Shown here: positions 22,566 through 33,122 of the stretch, piece after piece | Layout: each line of letters opens with the position of its first letter | Numbering within the stretch: position 1 is the first letter of the stretch | NCBI RefSeq assembly: GCF_053078305.1 | Contig: NZ_CP166879.1 | DNA: 64,000 bases | Reading direction: 5' to 3' (one strand) | Made by a program: the position numbers and the translations under genes | The notes under the pieces: generated by a model | Database searches by the model: none | Seen by the model: the letters and a program-made list of their open reading frames with translations, nothing else | Told to the model about the DNA's origin: nothing

Positions 22566-25500
22566 ATGGCTTCGACAAATGCGCATCAAATAAAAAATAA
22601 TGATCAAAACTCTTTATGTGGTCTGGGTGACAAAATACGCCGCCTGACCGCCGGAGTTTGTTTATTTACACAATTTTTTTTCCCCGTCATGGCGACGGCA
22701 CAAAATGTGGTACACGCTAAACCTCAGACGACAGTTTCATCTGCCCCCCCTCTACTAGAAAATAATACGGTGCCTTACACGCTTGGTGCGCTGGAATCAG
22801 CGCAAAGCGTTGCTGATCGATTCGGTATTTCACTGGAGGAGCTTCGTCGTCTTAATCAGTTCCGTACTTTTGCTCGCGGCTTTGATAACGTGCGCCAGGG
22901 TGAAGAACTGGATGTTCCGGCAACAACCTCGCAGAAAAGCCATGAGCAACAAAATGCCGTACCGCCTGCGAATGGCGAAAACACGCTGGAGAATCAAATA
23001 GCCAGCACCTCGCAGCGAGTTGGCACTCTGCTTTCACAAGATATGAATAGTGAGCAGGCCAGCGGCATGGCGCGTGGTTGGGCGTCTTCAGAAGCCTCTG
23101 GCGCGATGACTGATTGGTTAAATAACTTTGGCACTGCGAAAATCTCTCTGGGTGTGGATGAAGATTTTAGCCTGAAAAATTCGCAATTCGACTTCCTGCA
23201 TCCGTGGTATGACACACCTGATTATCTGCTCTTCAGCCAGCATACCCTTCACCGAACAGACGATCGTACCCAGATCAACACCGGTTTGGGCTGGCGTCAT
23301 TTCACCTCCAGCTGGATGTCAGGCATCAACCTGTTTTTTGACCACGACCTGAGCCGCTATCACTCCCGCGCAGGGCTTGGCGCAGAATACTGGCGTGATT
23401 ATCTGAAGTTGAGCAGCAACGCTTATATCGGCCTGACCGGCTGGCGTAGCGCACCAGAATTGGATAACGACTTCGAAGCCCGCCCGGCCAACGGCTGGGA
23501 TTTACGCGCGGAAGGCTGGTTACCTGCCTGGCCACAACTGGGGGGAAAACTGGTCTATGAACAATACTATGGCGATGAAGTGGCGCTGTTTGACAAGAAT
23601 GATCGTCAAAGTAACCCCCATGCTATTACCGCAGGCCTCAACTATACCCCCTTCCCGCTTCTGACTCTCAGTGCGGAACAGCGTCAGGGGAAGCAAGGTG
23701 AAAATGACACACGTTTTGCCGTTGATCTGACCTGGCAACCCAGCAGTTCAATGCAGAAACAGCTTAATCCGGACGAAGTGGCCGGACGGCGCAGTCTGGC
23801 CGGTAGTCGTTATGACCTGATTGATCGCAACAACAACATCGTTCTGGAATACCGCAAGAAAGAGCTGATTCGCCTGAGTCTGCTGGATCCGGTGAAAGGG
23901 AAGTCTGGAGAAATAAAACCGCTGGTTTCCTCGCTACAGACCAAATATGCCCTGAAAGGCTATAACATCGAAGCCGCTGCGCTGGAAGCTGCCGGAGGTA
24001 AAGTCAGCACGTCTGGAAAAGATATCACGGTCACGCTGCCAGGTTACCGCTTCACTAACACCCCAGAAACCGATAATACATGGTCGATAGACGTTACCGC
24101 CGAGGATGTAAAAGGTAACCTGTCACGGCATGAACAAAGCATGGTAGTTATTCAGGCTCCGACATTAAGCCAGAAAGATTCTCTGTTATCCGTCAATCCG
24201 CTAACCGTGGCTGCAGATAAAAAATCGACGACCACATTGACCGTTACTGCGCACGATTCCGACGGAACTCCGGTGCCGGGGCTGGCGCTGCAAACCCGCA
24301 GTGAAGGCGTTCAGGATATCACCCTGTCTGACTGGACAGATAACGGTGATGGTAGTTACACACAGATACTGACCGCCGGAACGACATCAGGTTCAGTAAC
24401 ACTGACGCCGCAAATTAACGGTGAGAGTGCGGTAAAAGAATCCATCGTCGTTAATATCGTCCCTGTTGTCTCATCCCGCGACCATTCATCAATAACAATT
24501 GATAACGTATCGTATTATGCCGGAGACGACATCAAGGTTAGGGTGGAACTGAAAGACGACAGCAATCAACCGGTTGCATATCAAAAAGAGGAATTGGTAA
24601 AAGCCGTTACTGTCGAAAACAGCAAACCTGGCACCACGATTGTCTGGCACGAAGAGCAGCCGGGGGTTTATGCCGCGAATTATCCGGCCCATAAGCAAGG
24701 GACTGCACTAAGGGCACAACTTAGCCTTCACAACTGGAATGCTCCACTGCAATCGCATATTTATAACATTGAGGCAAACCAGAATAAGGCTCGCGTTGCC
24801 ACATTATCAGCGACAAATAATGACGTTTACGCCGATAAAAAGACATTTAATACCCTCACGATCAACGTCACTGATGAGAGTGATAATCCCCTGACAAATC
24901 ATCAGGTCACCTTTAAGAATGAAAAAGGAAGCGCGGAGTTTGTCGAACCGCCGCAGCAAAATACGGATGCATATGGTGTTGCCACAATAAACATGGTAAG
25001 TCAGGTTGCGGAAGAAAATACGATTAGCGCCACGCTGCCAAATGGTTTCTCACAACGGATAATTGCGAAATTCGTTAGCGATTCGAGTACGCCAAAATTC
25101 AAACAACTGGTTGCCGATCCAGATACCATTATTGCTGGCAACAGCCAGGGCAGTACTCTGACCGCCATCGTCACAGACTTTCATAACAACCCGTTAAAAG
25201 ATATGAAAGTGAATTTTGTGGCACCTGGTGGCTCGCAACTGGACAACACGACCGCCACAACAGACCAGTCCGGTATTGTGCGGGTGCACCTGACCAGTTC
25301 AAAAGCTGGTAGCTATTCCGTCGATGCCTCGCTTGAGGTGGATAAAAATATTCACCAGTCGGTCACGATCACCGTGGTCCCAAACAGGGAACAATCGGTA
25401 ATGACCTTGAATGCCGGGTCGGGCAGTGCGATCGCTAACAATACAAATATCGTTACCCTGACTGCCAGTGTGAAAGATGTTTATGGACACCCGTTGCCGG

Positions 25501-27806
25501 ATGAGGATGTGAAATTTACCTTGCCAGCCTCCATGACCGGGAACTTCACGCTAAGTAGTGAAACCGCCCGCACCGATGCAAACGGTGATGCCGTGGTCAC
25601 ATTGCGAGGCACAAAAGCGGGTGAGTTTACAGTTACGGCGACGCTGACCAGAAATAATACCGTTGTTTATCAGCAAGTCACTTTTATTGGGGATACAAAC
25701 AGTGCGCAGCTCCAGCCGCTGACTGCCTCATTAAATTCCATTGTTGCGGGTAACAGTACGGGGAGTACCCTGACGGCAACGATCCTGGACGCTTACCAAA
25801 ATCCGCTTAAAGACCAGTTGGTCACTTTCCAGAGTAACGATGTCACTCTAAGCGGAACAGAAGTCACCACCAATACGCTGGGTCAGGCGACGGTAACAAT
25901 GACCAGCAATATTGCCGGGCAACATAACGTCGTGGTGAGCCGGAAAGCGCAAGCCTCCGATAATAAAACGTTTAGTTTATCAGTGCTCCCGGATGAAAGT
26001 TCGGCGAAGGTAATAAGTATAACCGGAGCCGAAAAAACGATAACGGTTGGCGAAAACATCACGCTACGGATACTCGTCCAGGACGCGTTTAACAATGTAA
26101 TCGCGGGTCAACGCGTCAGATTAAGTGCGCAGCCAACAACTAACATTACGATAGGCGATACGGCTTACACCGATAATAACGGTTATGCGTACGTTAACCT
26201 TCTCAGCACCCAACCTGGGGTTTATCAGGTGACGGCAACGCTGGACAATAACAGTAGTAGTAAGGTTGACGTGAATGTGGCAAATGGCAAACTCGAGTTA
26301 ACATCATCGAAACCAGAAACCACGGTCCATAATAGTGAGGGTATTACGCTGACCGCAACGGCGAGAAATGCGCGGGGTGAATTGATGCCAGGGCAAATTA
26401 TCACCTTTAGCGTAACGCCTGAAGGTGCAACGCTAAGCAATACAGGGGAAGTCCTTACTGACCAGTCAGGTCAGGCCAAAGTGACGCTGACCAGTGACAA
26501 AGTGAATGTCTATACCGTTACGGCCATAATGAGCAAAGATGTTCCCGTTCAGAGCCAGGTAACGGTTGCGGTTAAGGCAGATGCTAAAACGGCACATGTT
26601 GTGAGCGTCGTGGCTTCTCCTGACACCATCACCGCCGACGGCATCGATAGCAGCACCATCACTTCACGAGTAGAAGATGATTACGGATTCCCGGTTGAAG
26701 GTGTCGATGTTAGTTATACCTTAGACACCAAAGGTCGCCCGGTAGTTAATATTCCAACTACGCGTACCGATCAATCCGGGCAAGTCACGGCGACAATAAC
26801 CAGTACATTGGCAGAAACCTTAACAGTCAATGTGCAAGTTCCTGGTACAGCCAACCAATCCGCAGCTATTACCTTGATTGCCGGCACGGCGGATGAAAGT
26901 AAGTCAATTTTGAAATCCGACGTTAGCACTCTGATGGCTGACTACCAGCATAGCGCGAAACTTACGCTAACATTGCAAGACAAGTACGGTAACCCGATAG
27001 TGACGTCTGATCATCTGGAATTTGTCCAGTCAGGTCCCTTCGTGAACTTTCTCAAGTTGAGCGATATTGATTACAGCCAAAGAAATTATGGCGAGTACAC
27101 CGTGACTGTCACTGGCGGAAAAGAGGGAACAGCGACTCTCATTCCCATGCTGAACGGGGTTCATCAGGCAAACTTAAGCGTATCGCTGAATCTCATCCGC
27201 TCGATAAAAGAAATGTCCGGTCATGTCACTGCAAACAACCATACCTTCTCCACGGCTAAATTCCCGAGCGAAGGTTTTGCAGGAGCGTATTACACACTCA
27301 ACAATGATAACTTTGAAGCGGGTAAAACCGTTGATGATTATATGTTTTCAAGTTCACAGAGTTGGGTGTCGGTCGATGCTTCAGGTAAGGTTTCTTTCGC
27401 AAATATCGGCGATCAAACGTCAGTCACAATAAGCGCTGTTCCCCGACAAGGAGGTACAACCTACCAGACCTTAATTAAGCTGAAAGGCTGGTGGGTGAAT
27501 AATGGAAATCATACCAATATCTGGCTAGCTGCCAATGCGCTCTGTCATGCTAAAAATGATGGATATAATCTTCCAGGCATCACACATTTGACGTCTGGCG
27601 AAAACAAACGCACGCAGGGATCACTGTATGGTGAATGGGGGAACGTTGGAGCGTTTTCCAGTAATTCGCAATTTACACAAGGAGCTTACTGGACAAGTGA
27701 ATCTGATGATTACAATCGGCACTACTATGTGCAGATGCTAACCGGTATGACTGGAAGCGACGCTGATTCCAGCCCCCAACTGACCGCCTGCCGTAAATCA
27801 CTATAA
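22566..27806 (+). CDS. Inverse-autotransporter (intimin/invasin-family) adhesin with LysM, beta-barrel, many Ig-like repeats and a C-terminal lectin-like domain
   Basis: 1746 aa. N-terminal LysM-like segment (YTLGALESAQSVADRFGISLEELRRLNQF), an intimin/invasin-type barrel region, then about a dozen roughly 100-aa Big_1-like repeats, and a Cys-containing C-terminal domain. Confidence 0.7.
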   Translation: MASTNAHQIKNNDQNSLCGLGDKIRRLTAGVCLFTQFFFPVMATAQNVVHAKPQTTVSSAPPLLENNTVPYTLGALESAQSVADRFGISLEELRRLNQFRTFARGFDNVRQGEELDVPATTSQKSHEQQNAVPPANGENTLENQIASTSQRVGTLLSQDMNSEQASGMARGWASSEASGAMTDWLNNFGTAKISLGVDEDFSLKNSQFDFLHPWYDTPDYLLFSQHTLHRTDDRTQINTGLGWRHFTSSWMSGINLFFDHDLSRYHSRAGLGAEYWRDYLKLSSNAYIGLTGWRSAPELDNDFEARPANGWDLRAEGWLPAWPQLGGKLVYEQYYGDEVALFDKNDRQSNPHAITAGLNYTPFPLLTLSAEQRQGKQGENDTRFAVDLTWQPSSSMQKQLNPDEVAGRRSLAGSRYDLIDRNNNIVLEYRKKELIRLSLLDPVKGKSGEIKPLVSSLQTKYALKGYNIEAAALEAAGGKVSTSGKDITVTLPGYRFTNTPETDNTWSIDVTAEDVKGNLSRHEQSMVVIQAPTLSQKDSLLSVNPLTVAADKKSTTTLTVTAHDSDGTPVPGLALQTRSEGVQDITLSDWTDNGDGSYTQILTAGTTSGSVTLTPQINGESAVKESIVVNIVPVVSSRDHSSITIDNVSYYAGDDIKVRVELKDDSNQPVAYQKEELVKAVTVENSKPGTTIVWHEEQPGVYAANYPAHKQGTALRAQLSLHNWNAPLQSHIYNIEANQNKARVATLSATNNDVYADKKTFNTLTINVTDESDNPLTNHQVTFKNEKGSAEFVEPPQQNTDAYGVATINMVSQVAEENTISATLPNGFSQRIIAKFVSDSSTPKFKQLVADPDTIIAGNSQGSTLTAIVTDFHNNPLKDMKVNFVAPGGSQLDNTTATTDQSGIVRVHLTSSKAGSYSVDASLEVDKNIHQSVTITVVPNREQSVMTLNAGSGSAIANNTNIVTLTASVKDVYGHPLPDEDVKFTLPASMTGNFTLSSETARTDANGDAVVTLRGTKAGEFTVTATLTRNNTVVYQQVTFIGDTNSAQLQPLTASLNSIVAGNSTGSTLTATILDAYQNPLKDQLVTFQSNDVTLSGTEVTTNTLGQATVTMTSNIAGQHNVVVSRKAQASDNKTFSLSVLPDESSAKVISITGAEKTITVGENITLRILVQDAFNNVIAGQRVRLSAQPTTNITIGDTAYTDNNGYAYVNLLSTQPGVYQVTATLDNNSSSKVDVNVANGKLELTSSKPETTVHNSEGITLTATARNARGELMPGQIITFSVTPEGATLSNTGEVLTDQSGQAKVTLTSDKVNVYTVTAIMSKDVPVQSQVTVAVKADAKTAHVVSVVASPDTITADGIDSSTITSRVEDDYGFPVEGVDVSYTLDTKGRPVVNIPTTRTDQSGQVTATITSTLAETLTVNVQVPGTANQSAAITLIAGTADESKSILKSDVSTLMADYQHSAKLTLTLQDKYGNPIVTSDHLEFVQSGPFVNFLKLSDIDYSQRNYGEYTVTVTGGKEGTATLIPMLNGVHQANLSVSLNLIRSIKEMSGHVTANNHTFSTAKFPSEGFAGAYYTLNNDNFEAGKTVDDYMFSSSQSWVSVDASGKVSFANIGDQTSVTISAVPRQGGTTYQTLIKLKGWWVNNGNHTNIWLAANALCHAKNDGYNLPGITHLTSGENKRTQGSLYGEWGNVGAFSSNSQFTQGAYWTSESDDYNRHYYVQMLTGMTGSDADSSPQLTACRKSL

Positions 27807-27929
27807 TTTCTGCAGTTGTTATTAAAGGATACCCTTTTACGAGGGTATCCTTTCAGACTGATAACAAACGCTACATTGCCGGATGTGCTGCGCTTATCAG
27901 GCCTATATAGCCCCTGCAATATATTGAAT

Positions 27930-28514
27930 TTATTGTTTTTGTACCCCAGTCGGCATAAACGACCACTCAAGAAACTCAACAGCAACCGTTGATGTCAGCC
28001 AGACCCCGTTTTCCGCTTGCCAGAAAGGGATGCCTCGTTTCGCCATCTCCTGTGCTTTGACGGTTAAGATAACCGGCGATCCGTGTCTTGCTCCCACTTT
28101 GCGTGCCGTTGCTTCATCAGCAGAGAGATGCACGTAATGACGATCCCCTGCAATCAGCCCCTGTTTTTTTATCTCGTCAAGGAAACGGCTTGCCGTACCG
28201 TGGTAGAGAAACTGTGGCGGTGTTTTTTCGGCAAAGGAAATAGCGACCTGCGAAGTCGAATGCCCCTGAACCGCGCGGATGCACCTACCATCACTGGAAT
28301 AATTAAAACGCTTTTTATCGCTGGTTGCGACCACGGTATCCAGCAATGCACGGGTTAACCGCTTGCCCGCTTTTTGGGCACAGAGTATAAGCTTATCGAT
28401 ATCCGCCCATCCTTCACGGTCCAGTACGATACCAATCGCCTCCGGTTTGTGTCGGAGGACAAAACTTAAAAACTTGCTCGTATCCGCCAGCTCTTTTTCG
28501 TTGTACTTTGCCAT
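27930..28514 (-). CDS. kptA: RNA 2'-phosphotransferase KptA (Tpt1 family)
   Basis: Start at the internal Met [25 protein letters not shown]…; conserved HGT/Tpt1 motifs. Confidence 0.75.
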
Positions 28515-28751
28515 CGCGTTTTCGTCCCTGGATTTTCTGTTTTTATTTACTGATGTCATTGTCACTGGGTTTATGAATTTTCTGCAACTCAATCCTGCGC
28601 AGAGCCTTTTCCACACAGCGTAATTTTACCGCTATGCAAAAAACGCATAGCCAGAAACATACTTGCATTTTCCCCATACCCACATGGCTGATAAGGTTTT
28701 TCCGCTCCAGGAATTTTCCTGGCTCAAGCAACACACAAACACAAAAAAACA

Positions 28752-29447
28752 ATGGGGATTGTTATGACACAACAAGGGGATGCTGTAGCCGGGGAGCTGG
28801 CGACAGAAAAAGTGGGCATTAAAGGGTATCTGGCTTTTTTTCTCACCATAATCTTTTTTTCCGGTGTTTTTTCCGGAACAGACAGCTGGTGGCGCGTTTT
28901 TGATTTTTCCGTGCTGAACGGATCGTTTGGGCAACTGCCTGGTGCGAATGGAGCCACCACCTCATTTCGCGGGGCGGGTGGCGCGGGGGCTAAAGATGGC
29001 TTTCTCTTTGCGCTGGAGCTGGCACCGTCAGTCATTCTCTCTCTGGGGATTATTTCAATTACCGATGGTCTTGGTGGATTACGCGCCGCGCAGCAGTTAA
29101 TGACACCTGTGCTAAAACCGTTGTTGGGCATTCCAGGGATCTGCTCGCTGGCGCTGATCGCTAACTTGCAAAACACTGATGCCGCCGCCGGTATGACCAA
29201 AGAGCTGGCGCAGGAAGGTGAAATTACCGAACGCGATAAAGTGATTTTCGCCGCATATCAAACCAGCGGTAGCGCCATCATCACCAACTACTTCTCTTCC
29301 GGCGTCGCGGTGTTCGCCTTTCTGGGCACGTCCGTAATCGTACCTTTAGCCGTCATCCTGGTGTTTAAATTTGTCGGAGCCAACATTTTGCGCGTCTGGC
29401 TTAACTTCGAAGAACGTCGCAACCCAACGCAAGGAGCGCAAGCATGA
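28752..29447 (+). CDS. yjiH: Inner-membrane protein YjiH
   Basis: Hydrophobic 231-aa ORF; start may be the downstream ATG at 28764. Coupled to yjiG. Confidence 0.65.
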   Translation: MGIVMTQQGDAVAGELATEKVGIKGYLAFFLTIIFFSGVFSGTDSWWRVFDFSVLNGSFGQLPGANGATTSFRGAGGAGAKDGFLFALELAPSVILSLGIISITDGLGGLRAAQQLMTPVLKPLLGIPGICSLALIANLQNTDAAAGMTKELAQEGEITERDKVIFAAYQTSGSAIITNYFSSGVAVFAFLGTSVIVPLAVILVFKFVGANILRVWLNFEERRNPTQGAQA

Positions 29448-29905
29448 CAACTCAGGTCCGCAAAAACGTCATGGATATGTTTATCGATGGCGCGCGCCGT
29501 GGCTTTACTATCGCCACGACCAACCTGCTGCCAAACGTGGTGATGGCGTTTGTCATCATTCAGGCGCTGAAAATTACCGGCCTGCTCGACTGGGTGGGGC
29601 ATATCTGTGAACCCGTAATGGCGCTGTGGGGATTACCCGGTGAAGCGGCAACCGTCCTTTTAGCCGCATTAATGAGTATGGGTGGCGCAGTCGGTGTTGC
29701 CGCCAGTCTGGCAACCGCTGGCGCATTAACCGGTCACGATGTCACCGTTTTACTGCCCGCGATGTATTTAATGGGCAACCCAGTGCAAAATGTCGGTCGC
29801 TGCCTGGGGACAGCCGAAGTGAATGCCAAATATTACCCGCATATCATTACGGTCTGCGTGATTAACGCATTGCTGTCGATCTGGGTTATGCAGCTTATTG
29901 TTTAA
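29444..29905 (+). CDS. yjiG: Inner-membrane protein YjiG (SpmB-like)
   Basis: 153-aa hydrophobic ORF overlapping the yjiH stop. Confidence 0.65.
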   Translation: MTTQVRKNVMDMFIDGARRGFTIATTNLLPNVVMAFVIIQALKITGLLDWVGHICEPVMALWGLPGEAATVLLAALMSMGGAVGVAASLATAGALTGHDVTVLLPAMYLMGNPVQNVGRCLGTAEVNAKYYPHIITVCVINALLSIWVMQLIV

Positions 29906-29917
29906 CAAGGAGTTACC

Positions 29918-31090
29918 ATGATTGATTATACCGCAGCCGGTTTTACCCTGCTGCAGGGAGCGCATTTGTATGCGCCGGAAGATCGGGGAATTTGCGATGT
30001 CCTCGTCGCTAACGGCAAAATTATCGCCGTTGCCAGCAATATCCCTTCTGACATTGTACCGGACTGCACGGTTGTCGATCTCAGCGGGCAGATCCTCTGC
30101 CCAGGTTTTATTGATCAACACGTCCATTTGATTGGCGGTGGCGGCGAAGCAGGTCCCACGACGCGCACGCCGGAAGTGGCGCTAAGTCGCCTGACGGAAG
30201 CGGGCGTCACGTCAGTGGTTGGTCTGCTGGGCACCGACTCTATCTCTCGCCACCCGGAATCCCTGCTCGCCAAGACCCGTGCGCTCAATGAAGAAGGCAT
30301 CAGCGCCTGGATGCTGACCGGCGCTTATCATGTCCCTTCCCGCACCATTACGGGTTCCGTGGAAAAAGACGTGGCGATTATCGATCGTGTGATTGGTGTG
30401 AAATGCGCCATCTCTGATCACCGTTCTGCCGCACCGGACGTTTATCACCTGGCTAATATGGCGGCCGAATCCCGCGTTGGCGGTTTGCTCGGCAGTAAAC
30501 CTGGCGTCACCGTGTTCCACATGGGCGACAGTAAAAAGGCGTTACAGCCTATCTATGACCTGCTGGAAAACTGCGATGTGCCGATCAGCAAGCTGCTGCC
30601 GACCCACGTTAACCGCAACGTACCGTTGTTTGAGCAGGCGCTGGAGTTCGCGCGCAAAGGCGGCACCATCGATATCACCAGCAGCATTGACGAACCGGTC
30701 GCCCCTGCCGAAGGTATTGCCCGCGCCGTTCAGGCGGGTATTCCGCTGGCACGCGTCACCCTCAGCTCCGACGGCAACGGTAGCCAGCCGTTCTTCGACG
30801 ACGAAGGGAATTTAACCCATATCGGTGTTGCAGGTTTTGAAACGTTGCTGGAAACCGTGCAGGTGCTGGTTAAAGACTATGATTTCAGTATCAGCGATGC
30901 CCTGCGCCCGCTCACCAGTAGCGTAGCCGGTTTCCTTAACCTGAGCGGGAAAGGCGAAATTCTGCCAGGCAATGACGCAGACTTACTGGTCATGACGCCA
31001 GAATTGCGCATTGAGCAGGTATACGCTCGCGGCAAACTGATGGTCAAAGACGGCAAAGCCTGCGTGAAAGGAACGTTTGAAACGGCATAA
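29918..31090 (+). CDS. iadA: Isoaspartyl dipeptidase
   Basis: 390-aa amidohydrolase with the HVHLIGGGGE metal-binding motif; matches IadA. Confidence 0.8.
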   Translation: MIDYTAAGFTLLQGAHLYAPEDRGICDVLVANGKIIAVASNIPSDIVPDCTVVDLSGQILCPGFIDQHVHLIGGGGEAGPTTRTPEVALSRLTEAGVTSVVGLLGTDSISRHPESLLAKTRALNEEGISAWMLTGAYHVPSRTITGSVEKDVAIIDRVIGVKCAISDHRSAAPDVYHLANMAAESRVGGLLGSKPGVTVFHMGDSKKALQPIYDLLENCDVPISKLLPTHVNRNVPLFEQALEFARKGGTIDITSSIDEPVAPAEGIARAVQAGIPLARVTLSSDGNGSQPFFDDEGNLTHIGVAGFETLLETVQVLVKDYDFSISDALRPLTSSVAGFLNLSGKGEILPGNDADLLVMTPELRIEQVYARGKLMVKDGKACVKGTFETA

Positions 31091-31154
31091 ACGGTTGTCA
31101 GCCGCCCTAATGGACGTAGAATGCCCGCAAGGGCGGCTGACAGAGTAAAACGTA

Positions 31155-32066
31155 ATGGATGACTGTGGTGCGGTTTTGCATAATATTGAAACTAAATGGC
31201 TTTATGATTTTCTGACCCTGGAAAAATGCCGCAATTTTTCCCAGGCGGCAGTTAGTCGCAACGTCTCGCAACCGGCATTCAGCCGCCGCATCCGTGCACT
31301 GGAACAGGCGATTGGCGTTGAATTGTTTAACCGCCAGGTGACGCCGCTGCAACTCTCAGAACAAGGGAAAATCTTCCATTCGCAGATCCGCCATCTGTTG
31401 CAACAGTTAGAAAGTAACCTTGCAGAGCTGCGTGGCGGCAGCGATTACGCGCAACGTAAAATCAAGATAGCCGCTGCACACTCTCTTTCCCTCGGTCTGT
31501 TACCGTCCATTATCAGCCAGATGCCGCCGCTTTTTACCTGGGCAATTGAAGCCATTGATGTCGATGAAGCGGTCGATAAACTGCGTGAAGGGCAAAGTGA
31601 CTGTATTTTTTCCTTTCACGACGAAGATTTGCTGGAAGCGCCGTTTGACCACATTCGCTTATTTGAATCTCAATTATTCCCTGTCTGCGCCAGTGACGAA
31701 CACGGAGAAGCACTTTTTAACCTCGCGCAGCCACACTTTCCGTTACTGAATTACAGCCGCAACTCCTACATGGGACGATTGATTAATCGCACCCTGACGC
31801 GCCACAGTGAGTTAAGTTTCAGCACCTTTTTTGTCTCTTCGATGAGCGAGCTTTTAAAGCAGGTTGCCCTCGACGGCTGTGGGATTGCCTGGCTGCCGGA
31901 GTATGCCATCCAACAAGAAATTCGCAGCGGGCAGCTCGTTGTGCTGAATCGGGACGAACTGGTGATCCCGATTCAGGCCTACGCATACCGGATGAATACC
32001 CGCATGAATCCAGTTGCCGAACGCTTCTGGCGTGAACTGCGCGAGCTGGAGATTGTGCTTAGCTGA
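31155..32066 (+). CDS. hypT: LysR-type transcriptional regulator (HypT/YjiE)
   Basis: 303 aa with an N-terminal LysR helix-turn-helix (…[24 protein letters not shown]…). Confidence 0.7.
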
Positions 32067-32451
32067 CATTCTCCAGCGTCGCACTGCGCCAACCGCCATT
32101 ATCCCAGACCAGATCAAACGTTAGCGGTTCATCGTCGTGGTACAGCATTATCTCAAGGCTGATCGCCAGAGTGTGGCAGTACGCTTCTTTCAAATTAACC
32201 TGCAACGCCGCAATCCGTGGCTCATGAAATAACAGTGCAGAACGCAGCTGACGGCAATACCAGCTCTGGAGATGTTTGTCGCTCGAGTTATGCACTTGCC
32301 ACTCGGGCATGCCTGAAACAAGTAATGACGGTAATGCCGAATGAGGAGAATTAAAAAGAGTGAGGAGATCGCTGCATACCGATTTACGCAGCGATGACGT
32401 TTTATTGCCTGAAATTTCAGGTAAAACAGCCTGAAGTGATTGGCGCATCAT
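32059..32451 (-). CDS. iraD: Anti-adaptor protein IraD
   Basis: 130 aa from [21 protein letters not shown]…; matches IraD. Confidence 0.7.
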
Positions 32452-33122
32452 TTTGCGCACTCCTGACGTTTAGCAACATATGCGGCTTGCCCTGAACACC
32501 GGGCACCACTGTATTGATGCTCATTTTCCATAGCCATTCCCTTTTGTTCATTACATCCATGTCAGTCTGAGACAGGCCTGAATCCTGTCAGCAAAGTATA
32601 AAACCTTACTTGCCTATGAATATCTACTGACTTTTCAGGAAAAAAGTCATGATTTGATAAAAATCATCAAACTCAAAAAAAAACCGCTAGTATATTCTGA
32701 ATATTCCGAATAGTTACGTAGATGAAAATACTTGTCACCGCCGCTACTTAATTCCGGTGGGAAATTATTTATTTCCGCATAATCAGCCATGTATTATTTG
32801 AAACAATTAGTTTGTAAATAATATAAATTGATAACATATCAAATACATCAAAAATACCATTCATAGGCATTATTAATATAGACATCAATATAGCAACATC
32901 AAATTCCAATTAGTAATAAGATATGCTTTTTAATTGCATGAAAATAATTTCAAATGAGCGTTTTTTGATACTTTAGAGTGTTTCCTACCCTTTAATATCA
33001 CCGTGTAGAGTTGATATCACTACAACAGAAACATGCATGTCATTTTTTTACTTCTTTTTTACTACAGAAAAATTTATCTATTTTTCTAAACATCAGTGAA
33101 ATACTCATAAAAGGTAACTATT

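Follow-up and report, generated by a model that had tools for sequence, protein, structure and literature searches.

The type Ve inverse autotransporter adhesin gene iatD between yjiJ and kptA of Escherichia coli, and the diverged block in which it lies

IatD and its described relatives

The IatD protein of E. coli was named and tested by Goh et al. in 2019 (PMC6714894) in strain SMS-3-5, where the gene, EcSMS35_4876, is 5241 bp in length. SMS-3-5 IatD was found to be surface-exposed by immunofluorescence and to promote biofilm formation on IPTG-driven over-expression in K-12, with neither binding to extracellular-matrix proteins nor autoaggregation being seen; the same authors reported a LysM domain from InterPro, found identities above 98% among the IatD proteins of different strains and raised an unidentified host receptor as a possibility (Goh et al. 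2019, PMC6714894). A review (PMC7312957) also lists IatD as surface-located and as forming biofilm. SMS-3-5 encodes six inverse autotransporters, only three of which combine LysM with a lectin cap: YeeJ (2359 aa in that strain), IatC (2459–2965 aa, encoded at another locus) and IatD itself (PMC6714894).

The gene described here lies in a stretch of 64,000 nucleotides from contig NZ_CP166879.1 (RefSeq assembly GCF_053078305.1), referred to below as the window, and is almost certainly iatD, encoding a type Ve inverse autotransporter adhesin of the intimin/invasin family. As a discovery it matters little, since iatD is already known: it has a name, the automatic annotation of NCBI recognises it and a functional study was published in 2019. 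In the window strain, nevertheless, the adhesin gene is intact, whereas it is frameshifted in the O157:H7 strain Xuzhou21, and apparently in most of the O157:H7 records sampled, and what looks to be a linked, deeply diverged espX6/yjiK/yjiJ/iatD haplotype offers a neat example in which to follow how alternative blocks endure in a conserved E. coli neighbourhood.

SMS-3-5 IatD (WP_000168882.1) is encoded by the same gene, of the same length, at the same position and within the same flanking block, although the protein differs from that of the window by 43 amino-acid substitutions. YeeJ shares with IatD the plan of LysM-like segment, barrel, Ig array and lectin-like domain, with around 77% DNA identity in the barrel region and 44–57% protein identity in the tip, where both cysteines are kept, but is encoded at a different locus and has a different middle passenger sequence and a longer passenger. 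The N-terminal model of IatC, a protein with the same domain plan, is the best NCBIfam match of the window protein (residues 12–838) but its score of 1126.7 bits falls far below the cut-off of 2400. Invasin (Yersinia pseudotuberculosis InvA; 1cwv, 4e1t) has the barrel, an alignment across D1–D5 and the tip fold in common with IatD; however, the tips are only 24% identical, conservation of the Asp that binds integrin is not clear, and IatD has around 12 Ig-like domains, against four Ig-like domains plus one of lectin-like type in the invasin fragment of known structure. Intimin (Eae of EPEC and EHEC; 4e1s, 1f00) likewise matches IatD in the barrel (E 1.1e-65) and in the fold of the tip (E 1.3e-6), yet the NCBIfam intimin model, with a cut-off of 1400 bits, scores only 360 and, unlike intimin, iatD lies outside the LEE, has no Tir partner and encodes a much longer passenger. 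FdeC/EaeH and SinH are secreted in the same way as IatD; the Ig domain of IatD at 527–647 is matched by FdeC 4e9l (E 2.5e-28) and the SinH model matches the barrel with 303.5 bits against a cut-off of 999. The YchO/YchP equivalog scores 267.8 bits against 508. IatC, intimin, SinH and YchO/YchP were rejected as the identity of the protein, all four equivalog scores being under their curated cut-offs.

Identity, extent and distribution of the gene

The open reading frame begins with ATG and runs unbroken for 1746 codons between yjiJ (21177–22355, plus strand) and kptA (27930–28514, minus strand), where it had been predicted to lie. The features of the gene and its flanks, in window coordinates, are as follows.

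22566..27806, plus strand: coding sequence assigned to iatD, 1746 aa, 5241 bp, type Ve inverse autotransporter adhesin IatD
22356..22565, no strand: intergenic region upstream of iatD, 210 bp, 34% G+C, presumed promoter or regulatory region
22566..22700, plus strand: long signal peptide, approximately residues 1–45, from sequence reading and a Kyte-Doolittle profile
22744..22750, plus strand: C7 homopolymer tract, codons 60–62, the C8 form of which is the frameshift in Xuzhou21
22767..22916, plus strand: LysM-like periplasmic segment, residues ~68–117, from a weak Pfam LysM match
23007..23855, plus strand: inverse-autotransporter beta-barrel and linker, residues ~148–430, from Pfam PF11924 and barrel structures
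23874..27476, plus strand: passenger rod of ~12 tandem Ig-like domains, residues ~437–1637, of Big_1, Invasin_D3 and Invasin_D4 types
27477..27803, plus strand: C-type-lectin-like tip, residues ~1638–1746, with Cys1660 and Cys1742, from an AlphaFold2 model and fold search
27824..27853, no strand: hairpin with a 12-bp stem and no T-run, just 3′ of the iatD stop, from folding
27878..27906, no strand: REP-like sequence (GCCGGATG...CAGGCCTA), recognised by eye

An exact match to the window protein is available as WP_044189348.1, and RefSeq (PGAP) names the same gene at the same locus "inverse autotransporter IatD". The annotated iatD of strain D8 is 99.5% identical to the window frame at the DNA level and its product 99.5% identical, with 8 differences, whilst SMS-3-5 IatD, of equal length, is identical at 1703 of 1746 residues without gaps; at 97.5% this is slightly under the >98% of the 2019 survey. 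The original prediction was framed without knowledge of the gene's name or of its functional study.

That this large adhesin gene is accessory is borne out by its distribution, with carriers numbering 638–641 among 5426 complete E. coli genomes and some 88% lacking the gene. In the ~640 annotated E. coli genomes that have it, it is always found in the yjiJ/kptA gap, and carriers include pathogenic lineages (O157:H7, O145:H28, S88) as well as environmental strains. The short gap stated for K-12 proved correct: in J53, which derives from K-12, as in two further strains without the gene, 12 bp separate the stops of yjiJ and kptA. The neighbourhood had been described as otherwise conserved core synteny; this holds for gene order but not for sequence or content, as yjiK and yjiJ are only ~81% identical to the K-12 type in DNA and an espX6-like gene is present farther left.

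Of the flanking non-coding elements, the upstream region yielded 10 sites in a promoter scan against 7.1 +/- 3.2 in shuffled sequence, which is not above chance, and for this reason no promoter was assigned to iatD. Downstream, the 126-nt stretch holding the hairpin has a folding z of -5.1, and the terminator scan called no intrinsic terminator at the hairpin. The label REP-like reflects an apparent resemblance to the E. coli REP consensus. A 15-bp identity between this element (27886–27900) and the 3′ end of K-12-type yjiJ was judged to be due to chance (E 0.058).

Frameshifts and the question of decay

Whilst the window strain, D8, SMS-3-5 and O157:H7 ATCC 43889 all have iatD intact, this is not the case in O157:H7 strain Xuzhou21, where the C tract has eight bases, the frame is shifted and a stop is met at codon 67. 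When an even sample of 60 iatD carriers was examined, 27 (~45%), nearly all of them O157:H7-type records, had one extra base within the first 200 nt. The frameshift in Xuzhou21, together with the same one-base excess in these carriers, indicates that iatD is dispensable in at least the O157:H7 lineage of Xuzhou21. SMS-3-5 has CCGTCCCC where the window allele has its uninterrupted C7 tract. Changes between C7 and C8 in this tract might serve to switch the adhesin on and off by mutation.

These observations bear on whether iatD, though intact in the window, is an accessory gene that has fallen silent or is decaying, unexpressed under normal conditions and heading for loss. AT-rich upstream DNA is usual for H-NS-silenced adhesin genes, and the region upstream of iatD is AT-rich; the gene is missing from most E. 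coli genomes, the early one-base excess (located in Xuzhou21 to the C tract) recurs across the sample and strain Combat11I9 carries different frameshifts. Set against this, the intact copies span four strains including an O157:H7, alleles from distant lineages are of equal length with protein identities of 97.5–99.5%, and the SMS-3-5 protein is functional once expressed (PMC6714894). On balance we regard decay as rather unlikely and treat the window gene as iatD, an intact adhesin gene.

Signal peptide, LysM-like segment and barrel

By inspection, the N-terminus of IatD has the features of a signal peptide, with a basic KIRR sequence, a hydrophobic core at 27–45 and then A-T-A followed by Q, which would place the cleavage site here. 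A LysM-like segment was also part of the original prediction and fared less well than the rest: in the window protein taken alone the Pfam LysM match is partial and not significant (E 0.054), but among 16 homologous N-termini it reaches E<=0.001 in two and E<=0.1 in 14, lending the segment weak support.

The barrel is far clearer. Pfam IAT_beta (PF11924) matches residues 148–423 over model positions 2–279 of 279 with an E of 9.3e-108, and searches of PDB sequences return invasin 4e1t (E 1.5e-81) and intimin 4e1s as matches to this region, confirming an intimin/invasin-type barrel. With the barrel (148–430) N-terminal and the Ig-like domains and tip (437–1746) C-terminal, the domain order is inverted, and domain, PDB-sequence and fold searches all uphold an inverse-autotransporter architecture.

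Ig-like rod and tip

The passenger contains ten significant domains of Big_1/Invasin_D3 type, identified using Pfam and a self-built HMM, an Invasin_D4-like domain at residues 1564–1624 and a weak Ig-like match at about 640–735. Adding a post-barrel D00 domain, which would occupy residues ~437–535, brings the total to roughly 12, in agreement with the dozen or so Ig-like repeats predicted.

IatD has cysteines at positions 18, 32, 1660 and 1742 only, so that the mature protein has just two, both within the C-type-lectin-like domain. Both Cys1660 and Cys1742 are kept in 128 of 133 tip homologues and presumably form a disulfide. When the tip alone was compared with PDB sequences, the best match, to invasin, reached only E 0.018, making a comparison of folds necessary. 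Using a 62-sequence alignment from a search of a representative library, AlphaFold2 modelled residues 1540–1746 with a pLDDT of 96.2; an earlier model built on a shallow 14-sequence alignment (pLDDT 43.5) was discarded. Foldseek identified invasin 1cwv as the best PDB match of the model (E 2.4e-12, TMq 0.81, rmsd 2.7 A), followed by intimin 1f00 and then by snake-venom C-type-lectin-like proteins, whilst at the sequence level residues 1255–1713 align with D1–D5 of 1cwv (E 1e-24). The cysteine-containing, lectin-like C-terminus that had been read from the sequence is therefore well founded.

A motif check of the sequence found no EPN, QPD, WND or RGD. EPN, QPD and WND characterise the lectins that bind sugars in a calcium-dependent way; for the tip, as for invasin and intimin, a ligand that is a protein or a surface is more likely than a sugar. 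Asp911, the integrin-binding residue of invasin, falls where the alignment is of low confidence and is matched by an Asn in IatD, with an Asp one position later. As this position is not clearly conserved, it gives no grounds for deducing a receptor like that of invasin for IatD.

Proposed export and function

Taken together, these features suggest the following scheme. The long Sec signal peptide would deliver IatD to the periplasm, where the LysM-like segment would remain and, by analogy with intimin and on weak domain evidence, would probably touch peptidoglycan. Residues ~148–430 form a 12-stranded outer-membrane barrel, as shown by their homology to the barrels of invasin and intimin, for which structures exist, and the C-terminal passenger would thread this barrel and fold outside as a rod of ~12 Ig-like domains ending, from the domain and fold searches, in a superdomain resembling invasin D4–D5. 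The tip holds the only cysteine pair of the mature protein, presumably disulfide-bonded, and would probably engage a protein or surface ligand rather than a sugar. That the window allele acts as an adhesin is likewise suggested by analogy, from the 97.5%-identical SMS-3-5 protein over-expressed in K-12.

Could IatD be a host-cell invasin instead, its tip binding an integrin-like or other receptor on animal cells and its main role being attachment or entry in the gut rather than biofilm formation? In both fold and sequence the tip is nearest to the integrin-binding D4–D5 superdomain of Yersinia invasin, and pathogenic lineages (O157:H7, O145:H28 and S88) are found among the carriers besides environmental strains, but the tip is only 24% identical to that of invasin, the Asp911 position is not clearly conserved and Xuzhou21, like probably most of the sampled O157:H7 records, has an inactivated copy of the gene. 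Goh et al. considered a host receptor possible but saw no binding to extracellular-matrix proteins (PMC6714894). We consider this role unlikely, a shade more so than decay, and prefer to view IatD as a surface adhesin. Finally, although adhesin genes with repeats are sometimes mis-assembled, the idea that the long frame is a product of chance or of mis-assembled Ig-domain DNA can be dismissed, for it has no other support, Tandem Repeats Finder detects no DNA tandem repeats in iatD, the nine repeats that match Pfam Big_1/Invasin_D3 are just 14–39% identical pairwise and the 5241-bp gene recurs in hundreds of complete genomes.

The surrounding haplotype block

Comparison with an empty-site strain places iatD in the right-hand part of a longer block, with the following features.

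17458..27961, no strand: alternative haplotype block, ~10.5 kb, from comparison with the empty-site strain
17826..20000, plus strand: espX6-like gene of the pentapeptide-repeat type, 724 aa, missing from the haplotype of K-12 type
20267..22355, plus strand: yjiK′ (SdiA-regulated domain protein) and yjiJ′ (MFS transporter), divergent alleles, from comparison with the K-12 type
27930..28514, minus strand: kptA lengthened by 10 residues at the C-terminus, 194 aa versus 184 aa, from protein alignment

Outside the block, identity to the empty-site strain stands at 97.8% (left of 17457) and 98.6% (right of 27962). Within it, yjiK–yjiJ is 81.3% identical and the remainder is absent. Window-type yjiK/yjiJ is found in 640 complete E. 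coli genomes and iatD in 639–641, and SMS-3-5 carries the same block of espX6-like gene, yjiK′, yjiJ′ and iatD. Judged from these sequences, 17458–27961 appears to behave as one linked alternative haplotype. We found no description of it in the body text of Goh et al. (PMC6714894).

In DNA, yjiJ of the window has 82% identity to its K-12-type counterpart, whereas for yjiJ of E. whittamii and Escherichia sp. E1V33 the identity to the K-12 type is 94.6–95.2%. On this basis we tentatively suggest, at somewhat less than even probability, that the unit of variation is the 10.5-kb block rather than iatD alone and that it is an ancient haplotype carried by ~12% of E. coli, which would have entered by introgression from an unsampled lineage branching near the base of the genus Escherichia or have been kept as a long-lived polymorphism. 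A scan for relatives of yjiJ′ returned only K-12-type or more distant alleles and identified no donor of the block. Nor did a scan of 100,044 species-representative genomes find any sequence closely related to the passenger and tip of IatD, but the scan needs exact 8-residue words and so does not prove absence outside E. coli.

The YjiK′ and YjiJ′ proteins are 83.9% and 89.5% identical to the K-12 type, respectively (DNA ~81%). The espX6-like gene, low in G+C (31–39%), is named EspX6 in O157 strains and pentapeptide repeat protein elsewhere, and its product matches NCBIfam pentapeptide families with every score below cut-off. At the right-hand boundary the stop codon of K-12-type kptA is replaced; the NCBIfam RNA 2'-phosphotransferase model spans KptA residues 1–184, and kptA is annotated as 585 bp in D8. 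A sequence deposited as 'E. coli strain E69' was considered as a third haplotype but, in a best match covering 96% of the query, was ~89% identical throughout the compared stretch and so belongs to a different species-level lineage.

Identity and distribution of iatD

The 1746-codon reading frame originally predicted at 22566-27806 is present at exactly those coordinates on the + strand and is unbroken, and its interpretation as an inverse-autotransporter adhesin is supported by the matches of its barrel, Ig-like array and tip. Its neighbours are as follows:

21177-22355, + strand: yjiJ, left neighbour of iatD
27930-28514, - strand: kptA, right neighbour of iatD

G+C content is 49.1% in the ORF, 46.4% across the window and 34% in the 210-bp gap upstream. 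As a known gene that has a name, an annotation and a partial characterisation, it is of low interest in itself. The iatA-D genes were defined in strain SMS-3-5, where iatD is EcSMS35_4876 (5241 bp) (Goh et al. 2019, mSphere; PMC6714894). Window IatD is identical to the SMS-3-5 protein at 1703 of 1746 residues with zero gaps, differs from that of strain D8 at eight residues and has an exact match at NCBI (WP_044189348.1), whose pipeline labels the gene 'iatD: inverse autotransporter IatD' in matching genomes. Megablast located the entire stretch 22000-28700 in 636 of 5426 complete E. coli genomes. With iatD alone as query, at least 80% of the gene was present in 638 genomes at 95-99.5% identity, about 15 more divergent alleles among these falling outside that range, whilst the 3' half matched 641 genomes, always chromosomally and as a single copy.

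Over its N-terminal part the protein matches NCBIfam's IatC, YrIlm, Ilp, intimin, SinH, Inv and YchO models, but in each case scores far under the cut-off, indicating that iatD is none of these. The barrel-region DNA is ~77% identical to that of yeeJ, and YeeJ-type tips are 44-57% identical to the IatD tip.

Domain architecture and function

The N-terminus of IatD reads from its sequence as a long signal peptide, with KIRR, a hydrophobic core at residues 27-45 and A-T-A followed by Q. Residues ~68-117 look LysM-like, and on a weak, partial match to Pfam LysM (E 0.054) we call this segment a putative divergent LysM; among 16 aligned homologous N-termini, LysM was matched at E<=0.001 in two and at E<=0.1 in 14. 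The predicted intimin/invasin-type barrel was borne out by Pfam IAT_beta, the entire model of which is covered by residues 148-423 (E 9.3e-108), and by matches to the solved barrels of invasin (E 1.5e-81) and intimin (E 1.1e-65). Ig-like domains were sought with Pfam and with an HMM made from IatD's own repeats.

Ig-like domains of IatD (residues)
~437-535: post-barrel D00 position (inferred)
540-631, 746-835, 847-937, 946-1041, 1052-1135: Big_1/Invasin_D3-type, first five
643-713: Big_1/Invasin_D3-type, weak
1151-1238, 1244-1336, 1347-1436, 1448-1541: Big_1/Invasin_D3-type, last four
1564-1624: Invasin_D4-like

Ten clear Big_1/Invasin_D3-type domains are counted, plus the weak one, and together with the Invasin_D4-like domain and the inferred D00 these give ~12, in agreement with the 'about a dozen' repeats first proposed. 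Pairwise identity among the nine repeats compared is 14-39%, and no DNA-level tandem repeat was found in iatD.

Residues 1255-1713 align with invasin (1cwv) over D1-D5 (E 1e-24). Residues 1540-1746, modelled with AlphaFold2 on a 62-sequence alignment (pLDDT 96.2, pTM 0.90), have invasin 1cwv as their top PDB match (E 2.4e-12, TMq 0.81, rmsd 2.7 A), followed by intimin 1f00 and 1e5u and then by snake-venom C-type-lectin-like proteins. The suggestion of a lectin-like, cysteine-containing C-terminus thus held. Of the four cysteines in IatD, 18 and 32 fall within the signal-peptide region and 1660 and 1742 within the tip; both tip cysteines are kept in 128 of 133 homologues. The tips of invasin and intimin each contain one single disulfide, and the Cys1660/Cys1742 pair fits this pattern as a putative bond. 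The EPN, QPD and WND lectin motifs are absent from IatD.

Type Ve secretion is an established model and, applied by homology, would have IatD exported by Sec, its putative LysM contacting peptidoglycan, the barrel inserting and the passenger then passing out through the barrel. SMS-3-5 IatD was located to the cell surface by immunofluorescence, and its IPTG-driven expression in a flu mutant of K-12 gave strong biofilm but neither autoaggregation nor binding to extracellular-matrix proteins; an unidentified receptor was proposed for its lectin-like cap (Goh et al., PMC6714894). For IatD, a 2020 review lists 'biofilm formation' only (PMC7312957).

A linked haplotype at yjiK-kptA

In J53, a derivative of K-12, yjiJ and kptA converge, their stop codons lying 12 bp apart, confirming the short gap first proposed for K-12; two further strains without iatD have the same arrangement. 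Comparison of window 13000-33000 with one empty-site strain gave these block limits:

up to 17457: left flank, 97.8% identity
17458-20271: no match
20272-22300: yjiK-yjiJ stretch, 81.3% identity
22301-27961: no match
from 27962: right flank, 98.6% identity

Protein identity to the empty-site type is 83.9% for YjiK, 89.5% for YjiJ, 98.4% for KptA and 100% for YjiH. The window-type yjiK/yjiJ stretch (at least 90% identity) occurs in 640 genomes, all others having the ~81% version. This number agrees with that of iatD carriers (639-641) and the same block recurs in D8, O157:H7, Combat11I9 and SMS-3-5; the iatD site is therefore more than an insertion: the gene forms the right end of a linked alternative haplotype of ~10.5 kb. 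The block also contains the following:

17826-20000: espX6-like pentapeptide-repeat gene (724 aa), absent from the K-12-type haplotype
27824-27853: hairpin with a 12-bp stem and no T-run, between iatD and kptA
27878-27906: what we take to be a REP-like sequence, between iatD and kptA

The espX6-like gene has low G+C (31-39%) and varies from 1974 to 2202 bp among the carrier loci examined; annotations of O157 strains name it T3SS effector EspX6. The 126-nt stretch with the hairpin and REP-like sequence folds at z = -5.1. At the block's right edge (27930-27961, - strand) kptA has its usual stop codon replaced, giving a KptA of 194 rather than 184 aa; kptA is annotated as frameshifted in two O157:H7 records.

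The window's allele of yjiJ shares 82% DNA identity with the K-12 type, against 94.6-95.2% for yjiJ of E. whittamii and Escherichia sp. E1V33, and so appears to predate the split of those lineages. No donor of the block was found among species-representative genomes.

Intactness of iatD

Window iatD carries a C7 tract at 22744-22750 (codons 60-62), and also a T8 tract at 22674-22681. In Xuzhou21 (O157:H7) the former is C8; the reading frame shifts and ends at codon 67, and the annotation of this strain records iatD as frameshifted. In ATCC 43889, also O157:H7, the tract is C7 and iatD is intact; in SMS-3-5 the C tract is interrupted. Of the 639 carriers, 60 were sampled evenly and their assemblies read over the first 200 nt of iatD: 27 had one extra base, nearly all of them O157:H7-type records. 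Some of these differences may be assembly errors, and the tract may also slip reversibly. Scaled up, roughly 350 genomes (~6%) would be free of this frameshift, a figure that leaves other lesions (e.g. in Combat11I9) uncounted and lies near the 6% of strains that had complete iatD in the 2019 survey (PMC6714894). The main text of that paper has no occurrence of frameshift, pseudogene or O157; the haplotype block, kptA extension and homopolymer frameshift, not found in it, are small additions.

Related loci

Citrobacter sp. Cu233 (locus L029, 9962-15248) has a 1042-aa inverse-autotransporter gene ~1 kb downstream of its yjiJ homologue, the product having a barrel 60% identical to that of IatD and a distant lectin-like tip. 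This single case may reflect an old linkage of yjiJ with an inverse-autotransporter gene, or coincidence. A locus titled E. coli strain E69 (L011) was rejected as E. coli, since the E. coli collection matches it at ~89% identity at best, over 96% of a 6.8-kb stretch, and it represents a separate species-level lineage; the gene after its yjiJ was matched to iadA, and neither kptA nor yjiH was found in the 10 kb downstream. In SMS-3-5 (locus L065, 2155-22332) a ~20-kb insert (ptsP/dhaKL, gcl, ibeA, nhaC), missing from the window and D8, lies between iraD and hypT, another variable spot in the iatD neighbourhood.
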